From the IMG/VR virus record IMGVR_UViG_2541047766_000003: a stretch of 42,126 nucleotides of DNA, one strand, 5' to 3'. Within the stretch, counting starts at the first letter, position 1; every line of letters starts with the position of its first letter. The position numbers and the translations under genes were made by a program. Under the pieces are notes generated by a model, which saw only the letters and a list, made by a program, of their open reading frames with translations, was not told the DNA's origin and did no database searches. Positions 6,579 to 37,161 of this stretch are shown in pieces. The stretch comes from a virus. Lineage: Duplodnaviria; Heunggongvirae; Uroviricota; Caudoviricetes.

Positions 6579-6593
6579 TTACCTTTCGGGTAA
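6579..6593. promoter_or_regulatory. Operator-like palindrome TTACC-TTTCG-GGTAA
   Basis: Same 15-bp palindrome family as the OL/OR sites; lies in the divergent tailspike / small-gene intergenic region. Confidence 0.5.
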
Positions 6594-6630
6594 TTTGCAA
6601 AACGTGCTGGATAGCAAACAAATTATTTGA

Positions 6631-6650
6631 TACTGTATAAATATACAGTT
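6631..6650 (+). promoter_or_regulatory. LexA (SOS) box
   Basis: tACTGTataaatatACAGtt = CTGT-N8-ACAG with AT-rich spacer, 20 bp before the ATG at 6670. Confidence 0.7.
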
Positions 6651-6669
6651 ATTGCATGGAGAAGATAAG

Positions 6670-6927
6670 ATGCAGCAGTATCACTATCCACTGGAAGACG
6701 GATTTACCGAAAGGATTCACACGCCGGGAGGCGTCAGGTCACTGGTGGAGGGATCGCACTTGATGAAATTACTCCGGGATCTCGATAAGGATGGATTTAA
6801 TGTCGATGGCCCACTTGCCGAACTGACTGCACTGATTAACTACGTCACCAGCTCACAGATGTCTATGCAGGATCTGCAAACACATCTCGACTATTGTGCC
6901 GAACAATTACGAAAACAAACCACATAA
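6670..6927 (+). CDS. Small protein (85 aa) homologous to C-terminal domain of the Bro-N protein; candidate SOS-controlled antirepressor
   Basis: RBS ggagaag then ATG; ...LMKLLRDLDKDGFNVDGPLAELT...DLQTH aligns with the C-terminus of 8075..8770 (...LMNLLNQLQDDGHDVSGAAAELT...DIQTH). Confidence 0.6.
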   Translation: MQQYHYPLEDGFTERIHTPGGVRSLVEGSHLMKLLRDLDKDGFNVDGPLAELTALINYVTSSQMSMQDLQTHLDYCAEQLRKQTT

Positions 6928-6932
6928 AGAAA

Positions 6933-6950
6933 AGGCCGCTAGAGCGGCCT
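6933..6950. terminator. Hairpin terminator between convergent genes
   Basis: aggccgc-taga-gcggcct; T-run follows on the minus strand. Confidence 0.5.
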
Positions 6951-7677
6951 ATCGTTTCGCTTTGTGCTCGTCCCAGCACGTTTTACACCATGCCATTAAG
7001 CCATCCGCATTTTGATTATTAGGGTAAAAGCTGGTTCGTTTTCTGCGGACATTACAAATTGGGCACCACTTCATATGACGTGTATTCTTTGGGCCATCGA
7101 GACACCTTGCACACCACTTAGTCAATCCATCTGGATTTTTTGACGATTTCCTGAACTTCTCATACGGAAGGTTTATTCTGCATCGCAAGCACTGCTTGCT
7201 ACCACTTGAAACTCTGTTAGCTGATTCTTCTTTTGGCGGCGATACAGAAGGTATTCTTGCTGGCTCTGATACTGCCTGAGGTGCTTTTTTAGATGACTGA
7301 GACGATATGTCATCACCAGGGAATCTTCCATGATATGCCGGAGGCGTTGACACTCCAGGTGGAAGCTCAGCTGTAAACGGCTTTGGCTGAATCAGTTGCC
7401 TCTCTTTTGCTAACTCCTGCTGTTTATAATATGTCTGGATTACCGCACTATCATAAGCAGGAGGTGCGGAAATATTAGGCGCATTACCTCCAGTTTTTTG
7501 AAACTGAGTAGAGGTGTGTTCTATCACCTGTGTACGATTAATCGTTATCTCCCCATCTTCGGTCTTTATCGTTTTGTTATGATTAACGACCGTACGATCA
7601 GAGATCTTAGTCTTGTTCTGGTTGATAACGTAAATAATCACCGCAACCACACCAACAACTATCCAGAAAACTTCCAT
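6949..7677 (-). CDS. Membrane-anchored protein with two PPAY motifs and a tandem C-terminal zinc ribbon
   Basis: N-terminal TM helix (VFWIVVGVVAVIIYVI); APPAY and TPPAY; four CxxC pairs (CLRC, CARC, CPIC, CKTC). Confidence 0.6.
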   Translation of the reverse strand: MEVFWIVVGVVAVIIYVINQNKTKISDRTVVNHNKTIKTEDGEITINRTQVIEHTSTQFQKTGGNAPNISAPPAYDSAVIQTYYKQQELAKERQLIQPKPFTAELPPGVSTPPAYHGRFPGDDISSQSSKKAPQAVSEPARIPSVSPPKEESANRVSSGSKQCLRCRINLPYEKFRKSSKNPDGLTKWCARCLDGPKNTRHMKWCPICNVRRKRTSFYPNNQNADGLMAWCKTCWDEHKAKR

Positions 7678-7697
7678 TGCTTTTCCTCACAATAACA

Positions 7698-7712
7698 TTA
7701 CCTTAAAGGTAA
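7698..7712. promoter_or_regulatory. Operator-like palindrome TTACC-TTAAA-GGTAA overlapping the promoter of 6949..7677
   Basis: 21 bp upstream of the minus-strand start; TTGATC -35-like element upstream on the minus strand. Confidence 0.5.
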
Positions 7713-7790
7713 TATCTTGCTTTCAGGTGATCAAGCGCTAAACGCCACCAACCAAATACGGTTGATTTTTATATACCTCCGCGCTTATCA

Positions 7791-7805
7791 TTACCTTTGC
7801 GGTAA
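7791..7805. promoter_or_regulatory. Operator-like palindrome TTACC-TTTGC-GGTAA with rightward promoter (TTGATT-18 bp-TATCAT)
   Basis: -35/-10-like hexamers immediately precede the palindrome; would transcribe toward the Bro-N gene. Confidence 0.45.
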
Positions 7806-8074
7806 ATTTACATCGCACTCCTCTTGTGTCATAGTAATCGGGCACTGGAAAAATCCAGTGCCGGGATTGGCGTCCCGGATTACTAAAAGGCGCATTCACC
7901 GCGCAAGCGGTTTTTTTATGCGTATAGCACGGCCACATTCGTATTATGGTGGGCTGTGTGGGGGCACCGAAAGGTGCGCCGGGTCCTTTTAGCCGGTTAC
8001 GCCAACCCTGCACAGTTCACCACCAACCGATTGGCGTCGGTAGTGGTGATTAACCAGACTAAAAGGTAACCACT

Positions 8075-8770
8075 ATGACAGCTACAAAAAGCACGTCCAT
8101 TTTTTCTTTCGAATCCCAAGCCGATATACGGGTAATCGTCATTAATGGTGAGCCATGGTTTATCGCTTCAGATGTTTGTCGGGCTATAGGCATAGCAAAC
8201 CATCGAGATGCTGTTCGAAAACTTGATGATGATGAGAAGGGCGTCGCTTCAACCGACACCCCTGGCGGTGAGCAAGAATCGATCATCATCTCCGAGTCAG
8301 GCCTCTACACACTGATCCTCCGCTGCCGCGATGCGGTGACACCAGGCACTATCCCCTACCGCTTTCGTAAATGGGTTACAGGTGAGGTTCTTCCTCAGAT
8401 CCGCCGCACCGGAAGTTACATTAAAAACTCGCTCCCGCAGGAAGAACGCATAAAGATGGTTGCCGACCAGGTAGCCAACGCCACGGCGTCAGCAGTAATG
8501 CAGGCGATGAAGATAGAGAACAAAACCTACAGCGCCCCGCTGAAGCCCGGCTACCGTAGCCTGATTCACTCGCCGTCTGGTGTTCTCGGCCTGACGGAAA
8601 ACTCACTGCTGATGAATCTGCTGAACCAGTTACAGGACGACGGGCACGATGTATCGGGCGCGGCGGCGGAGCTGACCACCATGTTCTGCTACATCGTCGG
8701 TGTGAGCAAATGCCTGCGTGATATCCAGACGCACGCGGAGTACATCAACGACAAAGCAGGGTTCTTCTGA
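8075..8770 (+). CDS. Bro-N domain protein, antirepressor-like
   Basis: N-terminal Bro-N signature (FSFESQADIRVIVINGEPWFIASDVCRAIGIANHRDAVRKLDDDEK); C-terminal domain is paralogous to 6670..6927. Confidence 0.8.
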   Translation: MTATKSTSIFSFESQADIRVIVINGEPWFIASDVCRAIGIANHRDAVRKLDDDEKGVASTDTPGGEQESIIISESGLYTLILRCRDAVTPGTIPYRFRKWVTGEVLPQIRRTGSYIKNSLPQEERIKMVADQVANATASAVMQAMKIENKTYSAPLKPGYRSLIHSPSGVLGLTENSLLMNLLNQLQDDGHDVSGAAAELTTMFCYIVGVSKCLRDIQTHAEYINDKAGFF

Positions 8771-8778
8771 CGGGCGGT

Positions 8779-8797
8779 GGCACAGGGATGTGCCTTT
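8779..8797 (+). terminator. Hairpin terminator after the Bro-N gene
   Basis: ggcaca-ggga-tgtgcc followed by ttt. Confidence 0.4.
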
Positions 8798-8842
8798 AAA
8801 TAATTCTGTACAGATTGCAGACTGTGGGTGAATAGCGTACTA

Positions 8843-8857
8843 TTACCTTAAAGGTAA
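8843..8857. promoter_or_regulatory. Operator-like palindrome TTACC-TTAAA-GGTAA overlapping RBS region of 8870..9037
   Basis: Identical 15-mer to the 7698 site; ends 13 bp before the ATG. Confidence 0.5.
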
Positions 8858-8869
8858 AGGAGGCGCGAT

Positions 8870-9037
8870 ATGACAGCGTTGAAAAATCGTACTCAGCACA
8901 ATAAACAAGCCAAGCAATGCTGGGATGTCATTGGAAAAGTTATGCTTGGCCGCGCAAGCAAAGAGCGCGACAAGGATATGGTTTACCAGACAGGAACATC
9001 TTTCAGCGACTTCAAGGCGGCATTTCGCTCCAAATAG
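8870..9037 (+). CDS. Small basic protein (55 aa), unknown function
   Basis: Strong RBS aaggagg 7 nt before ATG; not in the ORF track because under 60 aa. Confidence 0.5.
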   Translation: MTALKNRTQHNKQAKQCWDVIGKVMLGRASKERDKDMVYQTGTSFSDFKAAFRSK

Positions 9038-9057
9038 AAGCACATCAGGAGTTTTCC

Positions 9058-9498
9058 TTGAAGTTTAACATTAGAATATCTAATAGTTTTCTACATGGGG
9101 AAAGCAACACCCCTTTCGCTGTAGACGGACCTTTCCTTACTGATGATGAAATAAAAATCATACAAAGTTTTTTAGAGGATGTTGCCAATGGAAGGGCGCT
9201 TGTTGGAAAAAACAAGCCCTCGTGGGTTGATGATAACCATGATAAAATTCCCGGCTCAGACAATTATGAGCAAGAGAATTATTGGCATTATCATTGTGGG
9301 CCAACATGGTATCCAAACACATTTAAGAATTATACCATTAACTTAAATTTCAACCCTGGCGGAAGGCATTCTAATGAATGCATTCATTATGCAAAAAATG
9401 ATAATGAAATTGTCATTGTTGGATTTTCAAGAGAACACATACCTTTCCTTTCATCAGATGGAAACAACAATCCGCTTTTTAATGATGAAGAAGAATAG
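9058..9498 (+). CDS. Hypothetical AT-rich accessory protein (~146 aa), probable TTG start
   Basis: Open frame has no internal Met after the track start at 8917; RBS caggag 5 nt before TTG 9058; AT-rich; acidic C-terminal tail. Confidence 0.45.
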   Translation: MKFNIRISNSFLHGESNTPFAVDGPFLTDDEIKIIQSFLEDVANGRALVGKNKPSWVDDNHDKIPGSDNYEQENYWHYHCGPTWYPNTFKNYTINLNFNPGGRHSNECIHYAKNDNEIVIVGFSREHIPFLSSDGNNNPLFNDEEE

Positions 9499-9518
9499 CC
9501 CGCGCTGCGGGCTTTTTT
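9498..9518 (+). terminator. Rho-independent terminator
   Basis: gcccgc-gct-gcgggc followed by tttttt. Confidence 0.65.
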
Positions 9519-9590
9519 GTGGACGAAACAAAAGTCAGTGCTACACTCATTGACGCCACATTGAGGTGGCTTATAGATGGAAATTTCACA

Positions 9591-9752
9591 ATGAAAAAAG
9601 CATTTGCTGCACTGTTCGTTTTATTGTCTCTGGTAGCTTCAACTCAGGCCTTTGCCGGTCGTTGTCAGCACGACAGCGACACTGCTGCTGACGGCTCCCG
9701 CTGCGGTGGGCGTTCTGCGGATTCCCGCCCTGGCGGCGGTGGCATTCGTTAA
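9591..9752 (+). CDS. Small secreted peptide (signal peptide plus ~31-aa Gly/Arg/Asp-rich mature region with 2 Cys)
   Basis: MKKAFAALFVLLSLVASTQAFA then GRCQHDSDTAADGSRCGG...; weak RBS. Confidence 0.4.
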   Translation: MKKAFAALFVLLSLVASTQAFAGRCQHDSDTAADGSRCGGRSADSRPGGGGIR

Positions 9753-9758
9753 AAACAA

Positions 9759-9774
9759 GGCCGCGAAAGCGGCC
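9759..9774. terminator. Bidirectional hairpin terminator
   Basis: ggccgc-gaaa-gcggcc with U-runs on both strands; probable 3' end of the minus-strand late operon. Confidence 0.55.
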
Positions 9775-9783
9775 TGTGACATG

Positions 9784-10080
9784 TCACGTTCCTTTTCTGA
9801 ATGATAGCCGTTCGAAAAATGATGACATTCCACCGCAGACAATAGCAAAGATGATCCCACCAAAGAAGAGAAGGCCAGCCTGCCACCACTCCCACCGCCA
9901 TACATCCACAGCGCCAACCATACCAACAATCGCTCCAACAAATGGAATATAGCTCACGATGAAAGCAATGGGGGCTGCAATTATCCAGTGCAATCCCCAC
10001 CATGATTCAAGCCCAGCCATAATTGCTGCCAACTGAAAAAGACCAACGACGATATAAACAATGAATCCTATAGCTTGCAT
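9784..10080 (-). CDS. Small multi-TM membrane protein
   Basis: Three hydrophobic helices, Trp-rich. Confidence 0.55.
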   Translation of the reverse strand: MQAIGFIVYIVVGLFQLAAIMAGLESWWGLHWIIAAPIAFIVSYIPFVGAIVGMVGAVDVWRWEWWQAGLLFFGGIIFAIVCGGMSSFFERLSFRKGT

Positions 10081-10275
10081 GTAGTCACCTATTTACCCAG
10101 TAAAAATCAGAGGCCTCCCCTCAATAAGGCTTGCAACAAGAACTATTCCCTGCACAACAAAGATGAACCAGCAAATAGCTTGAGTCTGAGGGTTAAGAAA
10201 ATATTTGTAGCGGTCAATAAATAACAACCCACCAGAAATTATCACACTCAAAATAATTAAAAACACAACACTTCC

Positions 10276-18077: not shown

Positions 18078-20548
18078 CAGAATCCCCCAACAGTAAGGCG
18101 AGGAATAACGGCAAGAACAGACAGCGGCAACGGGTCAAGCTGACGGATTTTTACACGCCCGTTTTTGCCCCAGTTACTGTCCAGTTTCACTTCTACTTTT
18201 CCGGTAGCATCATCAACAGGATCATCGTAGAACTCGAATTCACGCTGTGGATATTCGTACCATTTACCGCCGGGCGTAGTCGCCCAGATGCCGCGACTGG
18301 CATTCACAACCAGAGTAACGGACGGGATCACCTGTTTTTTGTCCAGCAGCGTTTCCTGTCCGTTAATGTTGATATCCAGTGTTTCGAATTCAGCAGTTAT
18401 TGGCAGGCCGATGTGCACAACAGCCCCCGGTGATTCCAGCGTGACGGCACCTCCGGAAACCACTTTTTGTGGTTCCACGTTCGCATCAGAGAGGATGTTT
18501 ACGGTCTGGCCTTCAAGATGAGACAAGCCGCCAAATGTCCGGCGCGCCATCTGCCAGTTCGTGGTGGCCACATTCCTGAGGGATGGCGGGACGTTCCTGT
18601 TAGCACGAACCACTACTGCGGTATTGCTGGTTACAGAAATAATGTCGCAACGTAATTCTTTTGACAATTCATCGCCAGTATCAGGATCAGCTCCGGTATA
18701 AGGGAACTGTAGTTGCGCACCAACATCACTACTGGTGAAGTACGCACCACCAGAAACACTGATTGTATATTCCGCGTGGTAATCCCATTCACCAGAACCA
18801 CCAGTGATGGTCATCGTTCTGTCAGACGTATTTCTTCCATCATAGCTAAGGCCAGAATCAACAAAGAAAGCATCTTCATCGCTGGTAAATAAACGGCTGG
18901 ACAGTCGCTCTATGTATCTCACTGTTTGCCCGTTAACGGTTCGGTTAACGACGAAATACACCGCATCTTCATTGCCTTCGCTGATACTGCATGTGCTTTC
19001 ATATTTCCCGGTACTGGATTGTGGTGCCCATGCAAAAACCTGCTGATCACGCAAATAGGTCATCACCAGTAATTTACCGTCATCACGAATGCAGAAGGCG
19101 CTGGAGTAAGGGACAATAGAGAAGCACCAGTCAACAATGCTGTGCTTCTGAAAAAGATGATTGGCAAGGATAGTAAGGTCGTTCCCCTGATAGCCGTCAA
19201 CATCGAATGAGTAGGCCAGATCACGGACAACACTGCCTTTCTCCTGGACGAACAGAGCAATATTCGCCACGGCAATTGGTGGGACATTGCTCGAGCCATT
19301 TGATCCCTGAGAGCTGAATGCAAATGATGATGGGGTTAATACTTTGTTCTGGTCGCCGGTGATGACGTACTCACCTCCGGAAGTCAGCGCCACCAGCGAA
19401 CCAACATCAATCAGGTGGCGGATCTCATTAACCTGACGCCCGGCATAGGTGTAGATAATTCTGTCGTCATCCTGCGTAGGATTGCTTTTGCCAAAATCCT
19501 TATAATCCCCAGTACGGCTGGCCCAGATAGTCTGAGGGAACGCAGTCGATGCGGCGAAGTAAAGACGTTGTTGATAATAAACAACAGTGCCAGGATAACC
19601 GTTAATACTGTTCCAGGCATATTTAGCCCATTTGTAGCTGGCATTATCCTCGCCAACAACCTGCGAAGGGATATAGGAAATCACCTCGGCAGTTGCAGTA
19701 GTTCCATTTGCAGCAGAGATACGGGCAATGCCAAAACCACTGTGCAGATACTCCCACTCAATGCCGGTATCATCATCACCGGATCCGCCCCAGCCATCCC
19801 ATGATGTGCCTTCTGTATGCGAAGGGCGCAAAGTGCCTGTTTTGCCTGCTGTAACGGCGCGATAGTAGTTACTGTCTGCACGGCGAATATCGCCAATCGA
19901 CGTACTCTTACTGGTTTCCCATACCGGCACAGAATCCACTGCAGGCTGTTCCAGATAGAACAATTTGCCTACCTGCTCCGCGCCAAAAATAGAGGCGCTT
20001 GCCGTTAACGTAATTGTCCCGGTGCTGGCGCTGGCATAAACCGTCACTGACTCGTCAATATTGATATCTTCAAATGGCCCGTTCTTCGTTACCACATCAA
20101 CCAGTTGCCAGTTGTCATGCGCATAGCGGCGCAACTCTTTCGGCGGGTATGCCGGATGAACCAGCGTAAGCACGTCTGCGCTTTGCGTGAATTTAATTCG
20201 GAACAGATCGGCTTCAGTATATGGCGTGGCAATTTCATAAATAACATTGCTGCTGTTCAGCACCAACGCACCATCTTTGATAACGCGCATGTACTGGTGT
20301 CCGAACTCCAGAGCATAGGTCTGAACAGTCGAGAACTGGAACGGGATCAGGCGGCATTTCCGATTTGGGTATTTGGCGGCACCGACAAAACGCGTACCCG
20401 GTCGATTCTCAACGCCGCCATACTGCCGCACGATAAAGTTATCGCACTTGCGCAAAGCCACCTGGTACTTCGCCATGTCGATACGACCGTACAACGACGG
20501 TCCAATCTCACCACCGGCAAAGCTGGGCTGGATCCAACTGATAGCCAT
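18077..20548 (-). CDS. Tail tubular protein B-like (nozzle)
   Basis: 823 aa; N-terminus MAISWIQPSFAGGEIGPSLYGRID resembles gp12-type N-termini; follows the gp11-like gene. Confidence 0.7.
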   Translation of the reverse strand: MAISWIQPSFAGGEIGPSLYGRIDMAKYQVALRKCDNFIVRQYGGVENRPGTRFVGAAKYPNRKCRLIPFQFSTVQTYALEFGHQYMRVIKDGALVLNSSNVIYEIATPYTEADLFRIKFTQSADVLTLVHPAYPPKELRRYAHDNWQLVDVVTKNGPFEDINIDESVTVYASASTGTITLTASASIFGAEQVGKLFYLEQPAVDSVPVWETSKSTSIGDIRRADSNYYRAVTAGKTGTLRPSHTEGTSWDGWGGSGDDDTGIEWEYLHSGFGIARISAANGTTATAEVISYIPSQVVGEDNASYKWAKYAWNSINGYPGTVVYYQQRLYFAASTAFPQTIWASRTGDYKDFGKSNPTQDDDRIIYTYAGRQVNEIRHLIDVGSLVALTSGGEYVITGDQNKVLTPSSFAFSSQGSNGSSNVPPIAVANIALFVQEKGSVVRDLAYSFDVDGYQGNDLTILANHLFQKHSIVDWCFSIVPYSSAFCIRDDGKLLVMTYLRDQQVFAWAPQSSTGKYESTCSISEGNEDAVYFVVNRTVNGQTVRYIERLSSRLFTSDEDAFFVDSGLSYDGRNTSDRTMTITGGSGEWDYHAEYTISVSGGAYFTSSDVGAQLQFPYTGADPDTGDELSKELRCDIISVTSNTAVVVRANRNVPPSLRNVATTNWQMARRTFGGLSHLEGQTVNILSDANVEPQKVVSGGAVTLESPGAVVHIGLPITAEFETLDININGQETLLDKKQVIPSVTLVVNASRGIWATTPGGKWYEYPQREFEFYDDPVDDATGKVEVKLDSNWGKNGRVKIRQLDPLPLSVLAVIPRLTVGGF

Positions 20549-26254: not shown

Positions 26255-26322
26255 ATCAATGACTCCGTACGCAATTAAATTATTACCAATTTAACCACAT
26301 ATGATTTATTTATCGTAGGCAG

Positions 26323-26359
26323 TTGACATTTAACGCACGAATTATTACCTTTCAGGTAA
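26323..26359 (+). promoter_or_regulatory. Promoter-like TTGACA plus operator palindrome TTACC-TTTCA-GGTAA
   Basis: Architecture parallels pL (ttgacat...attattacc...ggtaa); faces the tRNA/Gp49 islet. Confidence 0.45.
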
Positions 26360-26681: not shown

Positions 26682-26758
26682 GTGGCATTAGCTCAGTTGG
26701 ACAGAGCAACCGCCTTCTAAGCGGTTGGTCGCAGGTTCGAATCCTGCATGCTACGCCA
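26682..26758 (+). tRNA. tRNA-Arg (anticodon TCT)
   Basis: Cloverleaf folded by hand: acceptor GTGGCAT/ATGCTAC, D-stem GCTC/GAGC, anticodon stem ACCGC/GCGGT with loop CTTCTAA, T-arm GCAGG-TTCGAAT-CCTGC, encoded CCA. Confidence 0.85.
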
Positions 26759-27418: not shown

Positions 27419-28894
27419 TTAAGCATATGGATCGTAATCTGTGATGGCCTTGCCTTGCTGGTTCTGCTGCCCGGGAATTCGCAGACGCTTCGACACAGGG
27501 AACGCAAACGTCAGCAGTAGCGCATCGCCTTTACCAGGAGAACGCCCAAGCCGCTCCTTGATATCTTCCTTCGGTTCGATAACAATTTTACCGTCCACTC
27601 GAACTTTGTACTCTGCCGCAGACAGGTCGTCCGCTGTTTCCTGGTCATCCAGCATGCCGCCCAGCCTCAGCCATGTCTTGCATGAGTTGAACATCTCCCC
27701 ACGCTTGTTGAACATCTGCGGGTCAGTAGACGCGCCACCGAACGGAACAAGTTGCCATGTACGACCCCAGCCATCACCGATTGACTTCAGACCAGTTCCG
27801 TAACCGAAGTCGATGAACACTGCGTCAGCCTGGTACTGGTCTTCAAAGTCAGCGATACGCTTCGCCATAATCAGATCGTCAGTGGTCTTGTTGCCAGTCC
27901 ACAGCACCTTACTGTGCAGCCCCTGCCGCAGGTATATCACAGCGTCATCAACGCCGGAGTATGCCGGGTCAACGCCGATTATCACCGGAGCATGTGCAAC
28001 CTGCGCAGCGGTTACCACCCGTTTCATTGCCTCGTCAGTAAGGCCGGTAGGGATAAACTGCAATTCAGATGCATCCGGGAATATGCCGCGCACACGGATT
28101 TTAACGAAGTCGCTGTCTTCCCCGTAGTCATCAACCCATTTCTGCAACTGCTGTTTGTTAGTGCCTTCCACCGTCCGGCTGTCAATCTGCGCAGTTTTCC
28201 AGCGGTGTTTATATTTGCGGAAACATTCGCGGAAACGTCCGGTATTACGCGTCGGGTTTCCGAACGCCACCCAGATAATCTCAGTGTCTTCGTCCGTCAG
28301 CGCACCCTCTGCTACCTCCCACACCAGATCGGCAATGTTGGATGCTTCGTCGAATACCACGATGATGCGTTTGCGCTCGTTGTGTAGTCCGGCGAATGCC
28401 TCAGTGTTGTGCTCAGACCAGGGGATTGCGTCAGCTCGCCACCGCTTGTCGTGCCCAGGGTCATTGCTGTACATCGCGGTAGCGGTACAGGTAAACCAGT
28501 CTTTCGTGATAGCAAGGTTTGACCACTTGATAATTTCCGGCCAGGTCTTCGTTCGTAGCTGGTTGTCGGTGTTGGCGGTCACCACGACCTTACAATCCTC
28601 GCAAGTGGACATGCCCCAGTTGATCAACATTGAGATGAATGCTGATTTACCAATACCGTGACCCGAAGCACGTGCCAGCATAAGCGGCTGATAACGCGTC
28701 TCTGGATTCTGCAGGTGATCACGTATCTCTCGGAACGCATCGGCCTGCCACTGACGTGGACCGGTAGCATGTGCCAGTTCAGTCCCCTCTTCCCCCCAAG
28801 GGAACGCATAGAGGGCATAGCCAAGCGGATCGTGAGTGAACCCTGCAATATCTTCGATTAACTGCTCTTCAGGAGATAACGCTGCATCTGTCAC
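27419..28894 (-). CDS. Terminase large subunit
   Basis: 491 aa; Walker A-like GHGIGKS, ATPase and nuclease halves; follows the small subunit with 4-nt overlap. Confidence 0.9.
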   Translation of the reverse strand: MTDAALSPEEQLIEDIAGFTHDPLGYALYAFPWGEEGTELAHATGPRQWQADAFREIRDHLQNPETRYQPLMLARASGHGIGKSAFISMLINWGMSTCEDCKVVVTANTDNQLRTKTWPEIIKWSNLAITKDWFTCTATAMYSNDPGHDKRWRADAIPWSEHNTEAFAGLHNERKRIIVVFDEASNIADLVWEVAEGALTDEDTEIIWVAFGNPTRNTGRFRECFRKYKHRWKTAQIDSRTVEGTNKQQLQKWVDDYGEDSDFVKIRVRGIFPDASELQFIPTGLTDEAMKRVVTAAQVAHAPVIIGVDPAYSGVDDAVIYLRQGLHSKVLWTGNKTTDDLIMAKRIADFEDQYQADAVFIDFGYGTGLKSIGDGWGRTWQLVPFGGASTDPQMFNKRGEMFNSCKTWLRLGGMLDDQETADDLSAAEYKVRVDGKIVIEPKEDIKERLGRSPGKGDALLLTFAFPVSKRLRIPGQQNQQGKAITDYDPYA

Positions 28895-29487
28895 TGATTA
28901 CCATCCTGACGTTCTTTGAGTCGCTTCCTGGCTGCTGCTATGCGATCAGCAATTGTCACATTCACATTAACATCCAGGCGTTCTTTGAATGCGTTGACGT
29001 CGACGTGCTTACCAATCAGTTCGAGGTTCTTCACCTTGTCAGGCCATTTAATTTTTTTGAGGATTGTCTCTATCGAATCCTCGTTCATGTTCATGATGGT
29101 CGATGACAGATCAAAGCCACTAAGCGTAGTGCGCCAGATTTTCGGCCACTCACGGATTGGTTTAAGGCTCCCATCGTCGTTGAGGATGTCGATCACGTCC
29201 ATCTGGTCGATCTCCACCAGGCGCATGAGAACGTAATCAGCACTGACGCGCATTCGTTTGTTGCGCTCCTCCATCAACTCGGCAATCCGTTTTTGAATGC
29301 GTTCATCGCGCATCATGACACTGGCTTTAACTGCCGCTGTATTTGGGGAGAATCCTGCGTTAATCGCTGCCTGAGTCTGGTTTTCAGGCGTTTTGATGTA
29401 TGACTGGCAATAAGCCTCCTGCATTGCTGTTAGTGGCTTAAATTGCGTTGATTTGCGTTTATAGGTTTTAGGTTCAGCAGGCATCAT
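28891..29487 (-). CDS. Terminase small subunit (start uncertain; the open frame runs to 29565)
   Basis: Terminase_2-like ...FKPLTAMQEAYCQSYIKTPENQTQAAINAGFSPNTA...; start set at the internal MMPAEP because the upstream 26 codons translate a DNA tandem repeat. Confidence 0.7.
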   Translation of the reverse strand: MMPAEPKTYKRKSTQFKPLTAMQEAYCQSYIKTPENQTQAAINAGFSPNTAAVKASVMMRDERIQKRIAELMEERNKRMRVSADYVLMRLVEIDQMDVIDILNDDGSLKPIREWPKIWRTTLSGFDLSSTIMNMNEDSIETILKKIKWPDKVKNLELIGKHVDVNAFKERLDVNVNVTIADRIAAARKRLKERQDGNQ

Positions 29488-29561
29488 AACCACCGTGGTA
29501 ATAGTTACCGTTGTGGTAATAGTAACATGCAAAATAAAGCCGCCATAGTTGGCGGCAGCAT

Positions 29562-29795
29562 TCAAAGTCCATCAAATTCATCGTAAAAACTCTCGTCAAG
29601 ATACCCTTCCCATTTACCGCGAATGAAAATTACATCCTCACCGCAAGGGTGCTGACTGTCGATAACTATATCCCTCCTGGCGCAACCATACTTGTGCATA
29701 AGAAATTTAACCTCTTTCGGAAAATTTGCTGAGTTATCTCTCATATCTTCAAGGTCGTAGCGTATTTTTGGCATAACACCTTCGTGACATGTCAC
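29562..29795 (-). CDS. Hypothetical small protein
   Basis: 77-aa ORF; ATG lies inside the GTGACATGTCAC palindrome. Confidence 0.5.
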   Translation of the reverse strand: MTCHEGVMPKIRYDLEDMRDNSANFPKEVKFLMHKYGCARRDIVIDSQHPCGEDVIFIRGKWEGYLDESFYDEFDGL

Positions 29796-30133
29796 ACTAT
29801 TAATTTCGTTTCATGCCAGCCTTTGGTCACCCAGCATTGCGAGTCACCATTACACGGGCATGAATTCACAGGTACTCTCTCGCCGCACTTACCGCAACGT
29901 TTTCTGCTGATCGATTTTATACGCCCGCGCACGCGTGCATCATCCTGGCGGATCAGTAACGCTATATACTCACCAAATTCGTAAGGCGCACGCCCGGGGC
30001 GACGCGTGGCACAGTTACGCTCCAGCATTTCAATTTCCTGAGCATCAAGCACAATCTCCAGCTTACGTACACCGGATTCAGCTTGTCTGGCTCTCTGAGC
30101 GGCTTTGCGCTCTGCTGCTGATTTAGCCATCAA
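29792..30133 (-). CDS. Hypothetical protein with C-terminal Cys-rich zinc-finger-like motif
   Basis: CGKCG...CPCNGDSQC. Confidence 0.5.
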   Translation of the reverse strand: MMAKSAAERKAAQRARQAESGVRKLEIVLDAQEIEMLERNCATRRPGRAPYEFGEYIALLIRQDDARVRGRIKSISRKRCGKCGERVPVNSCPCNGDSQCWVTKGWHETKLIV

Positions 30134-31332: not shown

Positions 31333-31342
31333 TTGTTATGCC

Positions 31343-31540: not shown

Positions 31541-31541
31541 A

Positions 31542-31763
31542 TCAGTCTCCTTTACCCGCTGCTTTCTCCTGCTCTTTAGCAAGCCGCTCCGCTTCTCTGA
31601 AATCCCAGTCAACTCGACGTGCTATATCAATTGCAGAACGCACGGTACGTTCAATTAGCGTATCCAGATTATCGATTGTCATTGCCATATCTGGATTGCG
31701 AGATAAAATCTCCGCCCTCTGAATCTGCCAGTTGTTGCAGGTTTCAAGTAATGAGTTAGCCAT
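31542..31763 (-). CDS. Hypothetical small protein
   Basis: RBS ggaaagg before internal Met MANSLL. Confidence 0.5.
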   Translation of the reverse strand: MANSLLETCNNWQIQRAEILSRNPDMAMTIDNLDTLIERTVRSAIDIARRVDWDFREAERLAKEQEKAAGKGD

Positions 31764-31764
31764 A

Positions 31765-32160: not shown

Positions 32161-32161
32161 C

Positions 32162-32884
32162 TCACTCTCCTTTGATGCGAATGCCAGCGGCGCGGGAATC
32201 ATTCCATCGCTTTACTTCTTCACGAATTACGTCAATGCATTCTTTCGAATCCATTAGGTAATCTTCATCAAAAAGACGTTCCTGTTCGTTTTCTATCGCA
32301 ACAATGATTGCTTCAACTAACTTTTGTGCCTGAGAACCACTTTCTAACTCTGCTATGCGCTTACTTCCATCCGCGATTACTCCCTCGTAATATTCACGCT
32401 GCTCGTTGAGTTTTGATTTTGCGGCTTCCAGCGCCGCAACCAATTCGTCTACAGTTCCGGCAGCTTGCAGTGCGTAATCGGTAATAGACATCTCATGATC
32501 AATTTCAGTACCGTTCTCATTAGTTGAGGTGATAGCAAAATAATCAGAGTCGATTTCGTTATCAGCTAAGTGGCGTAGCGTATCGGCAACAAGCTGACCG
32601 TTTTCGATTAACAGCTTCCCTACCGTTAGCGCAATATCCTCGTTCTCCTGGTCGCGAGATTTGATGTATTGCTGGTTTCTTTCCCGTTCATCCAGTAGCG
32701 CCAGCACGGTTTCTGGTCCGGCCAGAATTTTGAAGGCGTTGAGCGCATCAATATCAACACCGCTATCTTTAAGTTCCTGCTCGCTTATCAGATCATCATC
32801 AACTGGCAACATTAACAGGCGTTCCATTGCCGGAATTGCACGCTCTGCCGCCTCACGCAGTGCCTGATAGTCAATCTTGCTCAC
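32162..32884 (-). CDS. ead/Ea22-like protein
   Basis: MSKIDYQALREAAERA... acidic coiled-coil protein typical of this family. Confidence 0.6.
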   Translation of the reverse strand: MSKIDYQALREAAERAIPAMERLLMLPVDDDLISEQELKDSGVDIDALNAFKILAGPETVLALLDERERNQQYIKSRDQENEDIALTVGKLLIENGQLVADTLRHLADNEIDSDYFAITSTNENGTEIDHEMSITDYALQAAGTVDELVAALEAAKSKLNEQREYYEGVIADGSKRIAELESGSQAQKLVEAIIVAIENEQERLFDEDYLMDSKECIDVIREEVKRWNDSRAAGIRIKGE

Positions 32885-33570
32885 TGGTTGCCTCCTTTGC
32901 GAAGCTGGGCTGCGAACTCGTGAGCCAACGATGAATATGGATGCTCTTGACCACCAACAACCTTCAGGCTGGCAGCAAACATCTCCACACCACGCGCCCG
33001 CACTTCAGCCAGGAAGGCGTCAGTGGACGGAGTTTGCACCGTGATGCTGTCACGCAGGATGAAGTACGCGTTAAGCATTCCGGTTTCAGGCATCTCCTCT
33101 GCATTAAATGCATCGATTGCAGCATCCATTACAGGGCCAAGTGGTTGAGGGTGTGCGCTACGGATAGCATCACATTCAGCTATGATAGATTTGATTTTAT
33201 CTACCAGGTCAGATGGTGACACGTCGTCAGCTGACCGATTAAACCCAAGTGCCTCCCGAACTGCGCACGACTCCGACATTCTTTGGTCTGCTTGCCCTGC
33301 TGACATTGAGTAGCGAGCATTCTCAGCAGCCAGAGCCGAAAACTTCTCGTGTGCCAACTTAACAGCCGCATCAGCCTGCTTAATTGACTCAATCGCTCTC
33401 TGGTGGTCTTCGGCCAGCGCATTAGCACGCACCAGTTGCACTTCCAGTTGCGTTGCCAAATCGCTGAGCAGCTTTGCCACATTACGCATATCAACGGCAC
33501 CACATTCTGCTTTCAGTTCCGAAGCCATCTCATGCCCGGCGGCAACGAACCCTTTGATATTACTTTCCAT
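32881..33570 (-). CDS. Hypothetical early protein
   Basis: 229-aa ORF with 4-nt overlap to the next gene. Confidence 0.55.
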   Translation of the reverse strand: MESNIKGFVAAGHEMASELKAECGAVDMRNVAKLLSDLATQLEVQLVRANALAEDHQRAIESIKQADAAVKLAHEKFSALAAENARYSMSAGQADQRMSESCAVREALGFNRSADDVSPSDLVDKIKSIIAECDAIRSAHPQPLGPVMDAAIDAFNAEEMPETGMLNAYFILRDSITVQTPSTDAFLAEVRARGVEMFAASLKVVGGQEHPYSSLAHEFAAQLRKGGNQ

Positions 33571-33631
33571 CTTTACCCTCGCTTATCCACATAACTTATT
33601 GATTACATTGATAACTAAAAAGATCGTCGAT

Positions 33632-33976
33632 TCAGAACTCTTCGATTTTCCAGCCACCACCTGCTTTCTTTGGTTTAACCGTTACCCCGATGATTCGGAA
33701 CGGATACTGATCTGCGGCGACTTTGGTTTTCACCCTGGCGTCTTCGGTCCAGAAACCTTTCACTTCGTGCAGTTCCATCTCGCCGGTGGCGAGCATCACA
33801 GCGAAATCGGGCGTATAAAACGTGTTATCAGCTAACCGCAGCTTGATACCCTCGAATCGATACCAGGCGATTTCCCCTGCACGTTTACGCTGCTCAAGGT
33901 GCTGGCAATACGCAGATTCTGTTTTGTTCATCTGGCCTGTTTTGAGTCGACCAAGAGCCTGTATCTGTTTTCTCAT
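33632..33976 (-). CDS. DUF1064-family phage protein
   Basis: 114 aa; ...YTPDFAVMLATGEMELHEVKGFWTEDARVK... pattern. Confidence 0.6.
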   Translation of the reverse strand: MRKQIQALGRLKTGQMNKTESAYCQHLEQRKRAGEIAWYRFEGIKLRLADNTFYTPDFAVMLATGEMELHEVKGFWTEDARVKTKVAADQYPFRIIGVTVKPKKAGGGWKIEEF

Positions 33977-33979
33977 GAT

Positions 33980-33994
33980 TTACCTCTAAGGTAA
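33980..33994. promoter_or_regulatory. Operator-like palindrome TTACC-TCTAA-GGTAA immediately upstream of the DUF1064 gene
   Basis: Ends 4 bp before the ATG; TTGATT -35-like element upstream on the minus strand. Confidence 0.5.
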
Positions 33995-34041
33995 TTAAAA
34001 ACCACATAAGACACGAAATCAATAGAATTTAGAATATTTTG

Positions 34042-34056
34042 TTACCCAATAGGTAA
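34042..34056. promoter_or_regulatory. Operator-like palindrome TTACC-CAATA-GGTAA
   Basis: Second site in the same intergenic region, after a terminator-like hairpin at the end of the P-like gene. Confidence 0.5.
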
Positions 34057-34093
34057 CTATCGAGGCGTAAAAAAATGCGCTATCGCGCTGGTA

Positions 34094-34879
34094 TTACTTG
34101 ATAAATCCTGCCGCCTTTCCCCGCCTGTATTCCTCCATCAGCCACTGCGCCGGTGTTATTCCCCCAAGGGTGGCGGCGTTAGGCATGCACCCGAAACTTC
34201 GCCCTGGTGGATGGTAAACGTCTCTCCCTGTGTCCGGAGGCGTACTCATGGGTTCTGGCTTTGCCTGTATGCTGATCACCGGATCCGGTATCTGCTGTCC
34301 GGAAGCCACCTTTTTCGCCCAATCATCGAGCAGCCTGCGCGCGTGTTTCTCAACCTCAATCTCGCTAAGCTGGCGCTGATACATTGCACGGCGGGTATCA
34401 CATACGACCCAGTACATAACCGGATGTCGCCACGGGAATCTTTCGGGACCACCAGGATATAAACTTTTTTCCTTGCTGTACCTGTGAAACTCCGCCATCA
34501 CATCGTCAATGGTGACGCCAAGAACCATCTTGCTGTCTTTGCACCACTTGATAAATTGCCCTGGAGACGGCCAGAACGGAGATTCACTGGCGCGGGCGTG
34601 GCGCATACCAGCAGAAACCTGTTCACGGGTTCGGATCCCCCCTTCGGCAAACGCAGCAATCCACTGCTGTTTTGCAGCAACTTCCTGCTCTGGCGTCTTC
34701 AGGTTGGTTACCACTGCCGCCGGAAACAGTTGTTTCAGCTGTTTGAAAAGGGCATCAACAAGCCTCTCTGCTGACATGTTCACCACGTTGTCATTGTTGG
34801 TGTACTGATGCTCATAACCTGACATGCGAGAAAGGGCTTCTCCGTCACGGTTTTGTATCGCGGTAAAAACGTTGTTCAC
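34094..34879 (-). CDS. Replication protein P-like (helicase loader)
   Basis: ...REQVSAGMRHARASESPFWPSPGQFIKWCKD aligns with lambda P (EQVNAGMRVARRQNRPFLPSPGQFVAWCRE, from memory); GTG start after RBS ggagga. Confidence 0.75.
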   Translation of the reverse strand: MNNVFTAIQNRDGEALSRMSGYEHQYTNNDNVVNMSAERLVDALFKQLKQLFPAAVVTNLKTPEQEVAAKQQWIAAFAEGGIRTREQVSAGMRHARASESPFWPSPGQFIKWCKDSKMVLGVTIDDVMAEFHRYSKEKSLYPGGPERFPWRHPVMYWVVCDTRRAMYQRQLSEIEVEKHARRLLDDWAKKVASGQQIPDPVISIQAKPEPMSTPPDTGRDVYHPPGRSFGCMPNAATLGGITPAQWLMEEYRRGKAAGFIK

Positions 34880-35691
34880 AAGAAATCCTCCCATGCTTCA
34901 GGGCTGTTCCAGTGCGGAACGTTGTTATCAGGTAATGTTGATTGCTTCTGTCTGCTAATCTGCAGCCGCCTTGCCAGCTTCTGCTCCCACTGTGCCTGAT
35001 GGTATGCCTTACCCTCAGCCATCCAGTAAATTCTGAACTCTGCAAGTTCCTGTGCCGTTGGCAGACTGTCCAGGTAGATCCCCTGCAATGAGCTTTTCCG
35101 AAGAAAGTCATCTGATGGCTGCCATTGTTCATGCATGACAAATTTGCCTAATTGCCCTGGCCCACCAGGAGGAACAAAGTTATTCATCACGGCGTTGTTT
35201 GCGCCGGGGTCATGAGGCACAGAATCCCCGGTTTTTGTCCTGCTCTCCCTCTCTTGGTTAAATGACTGGTTATATGACTGGTTCTGGATCCCGTTTTTGG
35301 GATCATTCAACATCCCGTTTTTGGGATCATTCAACATCCCGTTTTTGGGTATATTCCCGTTTTCGGTAACATTACCGTTTTCGGGTTCATTACCCCCTTC
35401 CCGGTTGCCTTTAATGTTCCCGTTTTTGGTTATATTAAGAGAGAAAACCCGCACTCTTTTCGTCGCTCCCTTTCTCTCTCCGGTATCTGAAATAAGCCCC
35501 ATTTTCATGAGCGATATAAGTCCGGCCTGCACGGTTTTTTTATTCAGGCAAGTGTCTTTAACGAGGCGTTCTATGCTGGGGTAGCAGAGGTTATATTCAT
35601 CGGCTCTGTCAGCCATCGAGAGCAGTATGAGCTTTAATGACGAGCTACCTGGATCTGTCTCCCAGGCCCAATCTGTTGCATGTCTGCTCAT
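34876..35691 (-). CDS. Replication initiator, lambda O-like, with in-gene origin
   Basis: N-terminal HTH; central Asn/Gly/Pro repeats encoded by iterons. Confidence 0.75.
   Translation of the reverse strand: MSRHATDWAWETDPGSSSLKLILLSMADRADEYNLCYPSIERLVKDTCLNKKTVQAGLISLMKMGLISDTGERKGATKRVRVFSLNITKNGNIKGNREGGNEPENGNVTENGNIPKNGMLNDPKNGMLNDPKNGIQNQSYNQSFNQERESRTKTGDSVPHDPGANNAVMNNFVPPGGPGQLGKFVMHEQWQPSDDFLRKSSLQGIYLDSLPTAQELAEFRIYWMAEGKAYHQAQWEQKLARRLQISRQKQSTLPDNNVPHWNSPEAWEDFL
35288..35436. repeat. Replication-origin iterons (about six copies of CCGTTTT(T/C)GG, two perfect 24-bp repeats)
   Basis: atcccgtttttgggatcattcaac repeated in tandem, then degenerate copies at ~19-bp spacing. Confidence 0.7.
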
Positions 35692-35706
35692 GATTAATCT
35701 CAGCTA

Positions 35707-35976
35707 TCAGCTTGAATGTTGTGGGGAGGAATTAATCATGATCTGCTTAATCTCTGCCCTGATACGACGGTTTGATTCCATGGTGCACTCAACACAGTGT
35801 CCGTTGTAAACCCAGCGTTCACTGTCATGTCCGTGCTTACATGTTTTTCCGGTGTAGTAGCGTTTAAGTCCGCGCTTTGCGGCATCAATACGTGTAATGA
35901 TTTCCATGGTAAGCCCTGTTATTGGTATTGGGATTACGGTCATTTTGTGCTGACACAAAAAAAAGATCAACCACAT
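35707..35976 (-). CDS. Hypothetical protein at cII position (Cys/His-rich), start uncertain
   Basis: ORF after a tR1-like terminator downstream of the cro-like gene; alternative starts at MTVIP or MEIITR. Confidence 0.4.
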   Translation of the reverse strand: MWLIFFLCQHKMTVIPIPITGLTMEIITRIDAAKRGLKRYYTGKTCKHGHDSERWVYNGHCVECTMESNRRIRAEIKQIMINSSPQHSS

Positions 35977-35987
35977 TTGGTTTTTTA

Positions 35988-36002
35988 TTACCTTTGAGGT
36001 AC
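35988..36002. promoter_or_regulatory. Operator-like palindrome TTACC-TTTGA-GGTAC (imperfect)
   Basis: Lies between a hairpin terminator (gaccgcc-gggt-ggcggtc, ~36012..36031) and the next gene. Confidence 0.35.
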
Positions 36003-36057
36003 GAATAGATATGAAAAGACCGCCGGGTGGCGGTCTACAGAGGGTTGTAGCTGGATA

Positions 36058-36288
36058 TCATGAGTAGAAGAAGTATGCCAGTTCTGCTTTTGAGCGCAGC
36101 CATTGTCTTGTTTTACAGGCTTTAAAAAGCCCATTCATCAATACTTTACCTGGCATTTTGCGCTTACCTGTTAAGTGAGTCTGGATATAATGACTCGTCG
36201 TTCCGGCTTCCTGTGCGAAGGCTTCACGCTCATCCGGAGTAAGTGCAAGCCAGTGCTTTTTGAAATCGAAATGTCCGTTATCGCTCAT
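36058..36288 (-). CDS. Cro-like HTH regulator
   Basis: Divergent from the repressor; HTH segment EAFAQEAGTTSHYIQTHLTG. Confidence 0.6.
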   Translation of the reverse strand: MSDNGHFDFKKHWLALTPDEREAFAQEAGTTSHYIQTHLTGKRKMPGKVLMNGLFKACKTRQWLRSKAELAYFFYS

Positions 36289-36324
36289 AGCTATTGCCTG
36301 ATATTTATTTCAGATAATAAATAT

Positions 36325-36387
36325 TCACCCATAAGGTAACAAAAATCAAGGATAGTTACCTATGGGGTGCATTTACCTATTGGGTAA
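36325..36387. promoter_or_regulatory. OR-like tripartite operator
   Basis: Three palindromes: tCACC-CATAA-GGTAA (36325..36339), TTACC-TATGG-GGTgc (36356..36370), TTACC-TATTG-GGTAA (36373..36387). Confidence 0.6.
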
Positions 36388-36442
36388 TATTGCTTTAAAT
36401 TGAATCATCTACTGATTCATATATGAGGCGATTTTCCAGAAA

Positions 36443-37027
36443 ATGAAAAGTATCCAGGACGTCCGCAGGCAAAATCTCAACGACTTGATCGACCGTGAAT
36501 TCAATGGTGTTCAGACGCGGATGGCTGAAAAACTTGGAACTCAGGCAAATCTGGTAAACCGCTGGGCTCTTGGCAAGAAGGTTATCGGCGACCAGGTTGC
36601 GCGAAAAATTGAAGCTGCCGCCAATAAACCCCGTAACTGGCTTGATATCGATCGCTCGCTTTCTCAGGAAGGTTTTCAGCCTGTCGGCCCAAGCGACATT
36701 GGTCAGCTGGCGGCTCACAACCTGGAACGCTGGATGAGCGAAAGCCGCGACCTTTCAACACAGGGAAAACTTCACCGCGCATCCGGCGTCGCCCAGGTGA
36801 CAATCAGCCGCCTGTTAAACAATGAGGTCAGCGTTTCCATTTCCACCCTGGAGAATGTTGCATCTGCATTCGGGCGTCACGGATATGAACTACTGATTCA
36901 CCCGCACGACCCTGCAACTATCAACTATGACCGCTCGCGCTACGCATTGTTACCTGAAACCGAGAAAGCAAAGATCGAAAGTTACATTGAATTTGTCATC
37001 AACCAGAACGAAAAAAACAAACAATAA
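36443..37027 (+). CDS. Prophage repressor, dual-HTH, without LexA-like peptidase domain
   Basis: Position between the divergent cro-like gene and the pL-side operon; two HTH-like segments; no Ala-Gly/Ser-Lys S24 signature. Confidence 0.7.
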   Translation: MKSIQDVRRQNLNDLIDREFNGVQTRMAEKLGTQANLVNRWALGKKVIGDQVARKIEAAANKPRNWLDIDRSLSQEGFQPVGPSDIGQLAAHNLERWMSESRDLSTQGKLHRASGVAQVTISRLLNNEVSVSISTLENVASAFGRHGYELLIHPHDPATINYDRSRYALLPETEKAKIESYIEFVINQNEKNKQ

Positions 37028-37048
37028 AATAATACTTTTCAGTAAGTA

Positions 37049-37072
37049 AGCCGCCTTCTGGCGGCTTTTTTA
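37049..37072 (+). terminator. Rho-independent terminator after the repressor gene
   Basis: agccgcc-ttct-ggcggct followed by tttttt. Confidence 0.7.
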
Positions 37073-37084
37073 TTGCCTATACTA

Positions 37085-37161
37085 TTACCTAATGGGTAAT
37101 TTTTTTAACTCATATCTATTGACATCAAACCAAATACGCATAATTATTACCTAAACGGTAA
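37085..37161 (+). promoter_or_regulatory. OL-like operators and pL-like promoter
   Basis: TTACC-TAATG-GGTAA (37085..37099), TTGACA at 37119..37124, TTACC-TAAAC-GGTAA (37147..37161) overlapping the -10/+1 region. Confidence 0.55.

Follow-up and report, generated by a model that had tools for sequence, protein, structure and literature searches.

Dispersed operator palindromes in a phiV10/ε15-like prophage and their probable use by a tetrameric Rep repressor

Lambdoid repressors bind "a few symmetric operators", in contrast to phages whose repressors act at many sites (PMC1934351). The C1 repressor of P1 has 22 dispersed operators, which follow an asymmetric 17-mer, ATTGCTCTAATAAATTT (PMC8546580), and the repressor of the Cluster A mycobacteriophage L5 has 20-30 operators or stoperators, located in short intergenic gaps (PMC6550527). 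In phage SPC32H, palindromic DNA is bound by a tetramer of the repressor Rep, each palindrome being contacted by two DNA-binding domains that belong to different dimers (PMC9638917, citing Kim et al. 2016), and a tetrameric antirepressor, Ant, splits the Rep tetramer (PMC9638917). A review describes this Rep as inactivated by the antirepressor, with a C-terminal domain fold linked to DNA looping, and says of its mechanism of repression that it "has not been extensively characterized" (PMC9986798). Here, we analyse a window of 42,126 bp (the whole stretch of DNA in the IMG/VR virus record IMGVR_UViG_2541047766_000003), which encodes a Rep of this type and carries dispersed copies of a 15-bp palindrome, TTACC-N5-GGTAA. 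This palindrome is almost certainly the binding site of the prophage repressor, and we consider it quite likely that Rep directly controls many transcription units from about 15 such operators, with occupancy of the distal sites and repression at each site presumed.

The palindrome and its conservation in the genus

The window contains 11 exact copies of the palindrome, whereas 0.02 are expected, and none of 100 dinucleotide shuffles reaches 11. The exact copies start at 6579, 7698, 7791, 8843, 26345, 29505, 33980, 34042, 36373, 37085 and 37147. With at most one mismatch, the count is 14 compared with 0.83 expected from the shuffles, the additional copies being those at 29487, 35988 and 36325. 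A log-odds matrix trained solely on the five sites of the left and right operators (OL and OR) beside the repressor gene was applied to the window and to 300 shuffles. With the lowest training score as the cut-off, it found six distal sites (shuffle mean 0.013), and at a score of at least 12 it found nine (shuffle mean 0.69). An original prediction, made from the sequence alone, had held that the palindrome recurs non-randomly beyond OL and OR, and the scan with its shuffled control (6-9 distal sites vs. 0.01-0.7 in shuffles) bears this out, with 9-10 further sites. Its other main observations also stand: the repressor gene is flanked by two sites at OL and three at OR, and distal copies accompany accessory genes, an internal early promoter and a promoter that points toward a tRNA gene.

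Several details required revision. The listed copies are real, but the exact copy at 29505 and the one-mismatch copy at 29487, which together form a tandem pair immediately before terS, had been overlooked. All three listed OR sites are retained, the middle one being 36356-36370 with two mismatches; its credibility comes solely from a perfect ε15 site at the equivalent position, where the spacing is 17 + 30 bp in ε15 and 17 + 31 bp here. Another 22 two-mismatch matches, scattered and nearly all inside called open reading frames (ORFs), were rejected as background, and only 36356 was kept. The description of all copies as intergenic holds only if terS starts at ATG 29484, a conserved start that gives a protein of 198 amino acids (aa), as in ε15. 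The mechanically called ORF (28891-29565, minus strand) and the phiV10 annotation (41-715) begin 27 codons too far upstream, across the terminator and two operators, and would engulf these two sites. A distance of less than 25 bp from a start codon applies to 7698, 8843, 29487, 33980 and 37147, and not to 6579, 7791, 26345, 34042, 35988 and 37085.

In five related genomes, the palindrome is enriched 20- to 35-fold, with the following numbers of copies having at most one mismatch.

phiV10: 14 copies, 0.65 expected
ε15: 15 copies, 0.61 expected
SPC32H: 18 copies, 0.74 expected
Enterobacter phage Tyrion: 15 copies, 0.63 expected
Klebsiella phage BUCT711: 13 copies, 0.36 expected

These copies occupy orthologous places, namely the tandem pair before terS, the gap between the late structural operon and the tRNA/gp50 side, the ant/tailspike gap, OL and OR, the gap between the cro-like gene and the replication genes (with one mismatch), the pair after the replication genes, a position about 57 bp upstream of int, and one to three sites among the accessory genes beside ant. 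A one-mismatch TCACC site between the lysogenic-conversion genes and the lysis cassette is present in the relatives and absent from the window. In the alignments, the half-sites are invariant islands amid diverged spacers, and these invariant half-sites, together with the orthologous positions in five genomes, argue that the distal sites are functional.

Part of this distribution has already been recorded. The ε15 GenBank record (AY150271 / NC_004775) contains seven features labelled "protein_bind: repressor; lysogeny", and all seven are TTACC-N5-GGTAA.

12-27: before terS
2931-2947: before gp3
19895-19911: in the gp19/tailspike gap
32479, 32554 and 32616: OL
35906-35922: internal promoter

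The ε15 genome was described by Kropinski et al. 2007. ε15 carries the identical palindrome in 11 exact copies and shares with the window the positions at terS, gp3, gp19(ant)/tailspike and OL and the pair after the replication genes. However, only seven of its ~15 sites are annotated, apparently as predictions, and its OR triple is not; its Rep is 42% identical to that of the window, and the window adds the accessory operators 7698, 7791 and 8843 while being devoid of the site at the conversion/lysis junction. The records of phiV10, SPC32H, Tyrion and BUCT711 have no annotated operators, and searches of the literature on the motif or on Uetakevirus operators brought up nothing specific. The dispersal of operators is a conserved family trait of the genus, already public at least as a prediction. 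The original view that such a regulon would be unusually broad is contradicted by the distal sites marked in the ε15 record and by the precedents of P1 C1 and the Cluster A mycobacteriophages; direct silencing of many units by one repressor is likely, with binding presumed, but it is neither λ-type nor new.

Rep, Ant and the immunity region

The prophage in the window is phiV10/ε15-like (Uetakevirus) and lies in reverse orientation, extending from the integrase start codon (42126) to the lysis genes and slightly further, and its immunity region is 98% identical to that of Escherichia phage phiV10 and relatives. The switch comprises the following features.

36443-37027, plus strand: rep, prophage repressor of the SPC32H/ε15 Rep type, 194 aa, full-length homologue of PDB 5D50_A
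36058-36288, minus strand: cro-like gene for a small helix-turn-helix (HTH) regulator, divergent from rep (phrog_35 "transcriptional repressor", E 5.6e-13)
6670-6927, plus strand: ant, small (~86 aa) antirepressor (PDB 5D50_E "Anti-repressor protein", E 1.3e-47)
6631-6650: LexA box TACTGTATAAATATACAGTT before ant, a perfect match to CTGT-N8-ACAG

Rep aligns with SPC32H Rep (PDB 5D50_A) over residues 1-190 with an E value of 4e-42, and a Pfam search of the 36443-37027 protein returned HTH families only, with no peptidase S24 (autocleavage) domain. The repressor had originally been called λ-type, which is at odds with the missing S24 domain and with the full-length homology to the tetrameric SPC32H Rep. 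Proteins of the SPC32H type consist of an N-terminal DNA-binding, a middle dimerisation and a C-terminal tetramerisation domain, and the C-terminus of the window Rep aligns to the tetramerisation domain. Ant is 88% identical to SPC32H Ant, its gene is divergent from the tailspike gene, and its LexA box is at the same position as the SPC32H box. SPC32H shares the operator motif and the site map as well, whereas its Rep is 42% identical. The SPC32H switch is the subject of PDB 5D50/5D4Z, Kim & Ryu 2013 and Kim et al. 2016. Every mark of ε15-type sites and of the SPC32H/ε15 Rep-Ant switch that could be looked for is present; as judged from sequence comparison, the window holds a complete Rep-Ant-LexA switch, not a λ-type CI.

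The window Rep is 100% identical to the Rep of phiV10 and of ZX5, and 42% identical to that of ε15 and SPC32H; the five relatives span 42-100%, all but phiV10 being at 42-78%. Compared with ε15, SPC32H and BUCT711, the N-terminal domain is 54-56% identical and the remainder 36-37%. The helix segment NLVNRW is invariant in five genomes, in which C-terminal residues are conserved too. The invariance of NLVNRW and the better-kept N-terminal domain fit the unchanged operator half-site. A distant relative of the Rep N-terminal domain, the cI of Pseudomonas phage PseuP_224, is S24-type with another helix, and no comparable palindrome was found near it. In the ZX5 system, overexpression of the same Rep resulted in no free phage and lowered holin and endolysin mRNA by more than 99.9%, and no operator was defined in that study (PMC9782041).

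The operators and the early-left promoter (PL) of the immunity region are as follows.

37147-37161: OL proximal operator, exact, its first base being the final one of the PL -10
37119-37147, plus strand: PL-like early-left promoter, TTGACA-17-AATTAT, whose last T is operator base 1
37085-37099: OL distal operator, exact, 62 bp upstream of the proximal one (centres), right after the rep terminator
36373-36387: OR site nearest rep, exact
36356-36370: OR middle site, TTACCTATGGGGTGC, two mismatches, with the equivalent perfect ε15 site 17 bp from its neighbour
36325-36339: OR site nearest the cro-like gene, TCACC variant with one mismatch, within the spacer of the promoter of that gene
35988-36002: operator with one mismatch upstream of p42/replication genes, following the cro-gene terminator 36036-36017

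The architecture of PL is kept in 6/6 genomes, with CTATTGAC and ATTATTACC invariant across the alignment, and the OL pair is spaced by 62 bp in 5/6 genomes and by 63 bp in BUCT711. The three OR sites, spaced by 17 and 31 bp, lie between 36288 and 36443, and the promoter of the cro-like gene (counterparts: ε15 gp39 and phiV10 p41) is on the minus strand at 36342-36314 (TTGTTA-17-TATTAT). The TCACC variant occupies the cro-side OR position also in phiV10, ε15, SPC32H and Tyrion, and a one-mismatch site of the 35988 type is present in phiV10, Tyrion and BUCT711 and absent in ε15 and SPC32H. In all five relatives, a further one-mismatch variant, TTACCnTAAAGGTAT, with the half-site GGTAT, is found ~57 bp upstream of int (L001, i.e., phiV10, 26870; L004, 26882; L005, 26960; L006, 28568; L007, 12620); it would fall just past window position 42126. 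The conservation of these weak variants, i.e., the one upstream of int and the TCACC variants at the cro-side OR and at the conversion/lysis junction, suggests that affinities may be deliberately graded.

The arrangement resembles that of λ CI in its tripartite OR between divergent repressor and cro-like genes and in its palindromic operators overlapping PL and the early-right promoter (PR), and the paired sites suggest cooperative binding. However, S24 autocleavage is missing here, operators also occur outside OL and OR, and it is an antirepressor that brings about induction. Cro and CI bind common operators in λ-type switches, and here too a small HTH regulator (36058-36288) is encoded divergently from rep. 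The sites could be shared with this Cro-like protein or, distally, be used mainly by it, damping early and accessory transcription in lytic growth. We regard this as improbable, because the antirepressor, packaging and late genes must be silenced in the lysogen by a factor found there, i.e., Rep.

P1 has in common with the window one repressor acting on scattered operons, protein-mediated inactivation, and an antirepressor module with a C4 RNA (PMC8546580). In the window, operators stand at many operon promoters (~10 units), including that of the c4/ant module, but they follow a symmetric 15-mer rather than the asymmetric 17-mer of P1, which is moreover a plasmid prophage. We know of no homology between C1 and Rep. 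While many scattered sites are likewise a feature of Cluster A, we note two differences. First, the Cluster A sites are asymmetric 13-mers oriented with transcription, mostly off promoters, which block elongation, whereas the sites of the window are palindromic and most of them either cover a -10/+1 or form part of a pair at a promoter. Second, Cluster A motifs co-vary with the repressor, whereas the motif here is constant across the genus; both lambdoid and Cluster A specificities diversify, unlike that of this lineage.

Operators, promoters and the proposed silencing of distal units

Two promoter geometries are found. In the first, the operator begins at the end of the -10 element, as at PL (37147), 7791 and 8843; in the second, operator bases 2-7 (TACCTT) form the -10 behind a good -35, as at 26345 (plus strand) and 7698 (minus strand). 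The operator lies on or at the -10 in both geometries, and thus bound Rep would occlude RNA polymerase. The features outside the immunity region are listed below.

34042-34056: distal operator of the internal early promoter, exact, just after the replication-gene terminator
33980-33994: proximal operator of the internal early promoter, exact, at the minus-strand TTGATT-17-TTTAAT
29505-29519: operator upstream of terS, exact, after the early-right terminator 29559-29539
29487-29501: degenerate second terS site, one mismatch, 18 bp from 29505, abutting the terS ATG
26682-26758, plus strand: tRNA-Arg(TCT), downstream of the operator-overlapped plus-strand promoter
26345-26359: operator in the gap separating the late structural operon (gp3/p06 homologue, minus strand) from the tRNA-Arg side, exact
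8843-8857: operator of a small accessory gene pair (phrog_8607, phrog_5954), exact, at TTGCAG-17-TACTAT, 13 bp before ATG 8870
8075-8770, plus strand: Bro-N/Ant-type antirepressor gene (Pfam Bro-N, E 2.3e-21; phrog_130 "anti-repressor Ant", E 2.2e-62)
7942-8027, plus strand: C4 antisense RNA (Rfam, 77.7 bits, above the gathering score)
7842-7917, plus strand: isrK-family small RNA (sRNA) (Rfam, 76.7 bits, above the gathering score)
7791-7805: operator of the isrK / C4 / Bro-N antirepressor module, exact, starting at the -10 end of TTGATT-18-TATCAT (7762-7791)
7698-7712: operator of a minus-strand accessory gene (242 aa, phrog_6762, zinc-finger-like C-terminus), exact, 21 bp upstream of ATG 7677
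6579-6593: operator in the divergent ant / tail-fibre control region, exact, corresponding to the ε15 "repressor" site 19895-19911

The operators 33980 and 34042 are paired at 62 bp in 6/6 genomes, and the Shine-Dalgarno sequence of the DUF1064 gene (ATG 33976) lies within the proximal one. PL and this internal promoter have a common invariant layout, i.e., terminator, distal operator, CTATTGA (-35), 17 bp, -10 and proximal operator. The 62-bp operator spacing, which corresponds to ~5.9 helical turns, has one 63-bp exception over both promoters in six genomes, and such pairs are probably bridged by one Rep tetramer with two reading heads. The terS operator at 29505 is the counterpart of the ε15 site annotated "repressor" at 12-27, and phiV10, ε15 and Tyrion have likewise kept a tandem partner there. 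The site at 26345, equivalent to the ε15 "repressor" site 2931-2947, overlaps a plus-strand promoter, TTGACA (26321) -17- TACCTT, directed toward tRNA-Arg, and its half-sites and a TGTCAA hexamer are invariant in six genomes. The site at 6579 is ~47 bp upstream of a late motif shared with other units (6546-6539, minus strand; see below) and ~40 bp upstream of the LexA box.

Among the accessory units, the promoter at 7698 is on the minus strand (TTGATC-17-TACCTT). phiV10 carries a site identical to 7791, behind which the operator-promoter (7762-7805), the isrK-family sRNA, the C4 RNA and the Bro-N antirepressor gene follow in this order; the region 7798-7918 has a folding z of -5.95. The isrK family is an Hfq-binding sRNA, and the module resembles P1 immI (c4-icd-ant) and the Gifsy-1 isrK locus (PMC4825925), but is located in a podovirus prophage. 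In TL-2011b, another cassette (YafO-type toxin) is present at the position equivalent to 8843, likewise behind an operator. The operator is thus present although the cassette differs, which ties it to the conserved junction and not to the cargo. It is biologically sensible that antirepressor and toxin-like genes are kept off in the lysogen.

The overlap of copies with promoters, as originally described, is convincing at 37147, 33980, 7791, 8843, 26345 and 7698, and weak or absent at 6579, 34042 and 37085, which are upstream of promoters. A generic sigma-70 scan of the operator regions found promoter-like sites no more commonly than in shuffles. The promoter assignments are therefore based on cross-genome conservation, not on scan scores. 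The regularity with which a -10 hexamer ends on operator base 1 would also be expected if the repeat were mainly a phage promoter element (a -10-like TATTACC / GGTAAT(A)) for RNA polymerase or a phage activator. The hexamer ATTACC is ~2-fold over-represented in the window, and a lone GGTAAT half-site is found in an invariant late-promoter block. However, both half-sites are kept at a fixed 5 bp while the spacer varies, a dimeric HTH signature; the distal members of the 62-bp pairs are upstream of the -35, without a promoter role; and three copies are clustered between rep and the cro-like gene. The ε15 annotators, too, assigned the sites to the repressor. We therefore regard a promoter element as a very unlikely explanation.

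The reading that we prefer is direct repression by Rep. Two N-terminal HTH domains of the tetrameric Rep would together recognise each palindrome, and in the lysogen Rep on ~15 operators would shut almost every lytic unit directly, not via a λ-like cascade. The units covered would be PL (distal and proximal operators, 62 bp), PR (the three-site OR shared with the rep promoter), the replication genes (through a secondary site upstream of them), the PL-like internal early promoter, terS/terL, the late-operon/tRNA region, the ant/tail-fibre region, and three accessory units including the isrK-C4-Bro-N antirepressor module. At most sites, the operator starts on the last -10 base or contains the -10, and RNA polymerase would be excluded. 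Upon DNA damage and cleavage of LexA, Ant would be made from its LexA-boxed promoter and would dismantle the Rep tetramers, such that all units are derepressed together. Motif statistics, positions, conservation in the genus, Rep/Ant homology, the LexA box and promoter geometry, all computed here, form the basis of this reading.

Several observations weigh against it. It is from sequence that we infer the binding of Rep at distal sites, and the Cro-like protein could share the same sites. The sigma-70 predictions are weak at several sites. The operators 6579, 34042 and 37085 are upstream of promoter cores, not on them, and would need another explanation, e.g., pairing, looping or the blocking of an activator. 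The late-unit operators lie ~70-80 bp upstream of the presumed start, and simple occlusion thus cannot account for those units. The control region of the lysis cassette in the window has the late motif but no operator, unlike in the relatives, and thus not every late unit is directly covered.

Some of these observations would also fit distal copies that are not classical operators but roadblocks, which like stoperators would stop read-through past leaky terminators, or anchors for looping. The copies at 29505, 34042, 35988 and 37085 are directly downstream of intrinsic terminators, and the distance of the late-unit sites from their putative start is equally in keeping with such a role, as is the looping-type C-terminal domain of the Rep tetramer (PMC9986798); the stoperators provide a precedent (PMC6550527). 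However, the palindromic sites have no orientation to transcription, unlike stoperators; the best-conserved ones coincide exactly with the -10/+1 of conserved promoters; and none is found within an operon between translationally coupled genes. We thus consider roadblocks or looping anchors rather unlikely.

Direct repression by Rep would have practical consequences. Prophages of the phiV10 type are widespread in E. coli, with O157 and further pathogenic strains among their hosts, and their cargo comprises O-antigen-modifying genes as well as accessory ones. One antirepressor-sensitive repressor probably holding every lytic unit directly, the second antirepressor module and its sRNAs among them, would provide a complete, testable wiring diagram for induction and superinfection immunity in the genus, and the operator/promoter map could be used for engineering, e.g., of phiV10 reporter phages. 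Little is added to general principle, as distributed operators are known from the ε15 annotation, P1 and the mycobacteriophages.

Possible network features and the late motif

It is doubtful, but conceivable, that the network is more than a list of repressed promoters and jointly includes looped silencing, a two-tier antirepressor cascade and a frozen specificity. The 62-bp pairs and the OR triple could reflect the docking geometry of a single two-headed Rep tetramer, and the ~15 sites could fold the prophage into a looped, globally silenced state, which Ant would dissolve in one step. The cascade could run from LexA to the small Ant, to loss of Rep and then to the Bro-N Ant, whose output could be induction of other resident prophages. 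One half-site and one recognition segment are kept across E. coli, Salmonella, Enterobacter and Klebsiella phages, though their repressors are only 42% identical, and the need to change ~15 sites together may have frozen the immunity specificity. The invariant 62-bp operator pair, the control by Rep of an sRNA-gated second antirepressor, the shared late-promoter motif and the apparently frozen specificity across four host genera may be new.

The late motif, CATAT(G/A)(T/A)GGTT-N6-GTAAT(A), is found 30-45 bp downstream of an operator where the structural operon, the tailspike gene and the lysis cassette have their control regions (window 26255-26330, 6520-6550 and 3850-3885, all minus strand; relative L004 2980-3020, 24745-24790 and 19950-19990). 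Upstream of gp3, it is within a ~50-bp block that is invariant in six genomes and holds a lone GGTAAT half-operator. As a lone word, ATGTGGTT has five copies vs. 1.7 expected, with three of 100 shuffles reaching five; being marginal alone, it is meaningful only within the aligned late motif. The motif is a candidate activator-dependent late promoter, whose activator might be encoded by the last early-right gene (29792-30133, phrog_536 "transcriptional regulator").

In four relatives (L004 24704, L001 24692, L005 24782 and L006 26408), an operator is located 26-42 bp upstream of the starts of lysogenic-conversion genes (oac, gtr-like, ε15 gp22), which are expected to be expressed in lysogens; the window has no equivalent site. 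Rep might activate, instead of repressing, at the conversion genes; alternatively, the operator could act on the divergent lysis promoter.

An STnc490 Hfq-binding sRNA (Rfam, 146 bits) is found at 1687-1810 on the minus strand, just beyond the Rz gene. Its neighbours are a fragment of a DNA methyltransferase gene (1-516) and a gene with DUF5384 (532-1071), and these are also present in TL-2011b, not in phiV10. Finally, iteron-like tandem repeats at 35255-35394 (ATCCCGTTTTTGGGATCATTCAAC, 2.6 copies, and CCGTTTTCGGGTACATTA, three copies) are located inside the replication-initiator gene (34876-35691, minus strand), and by analogy to the λ ori inside gene O, they are probably the origin of replication.

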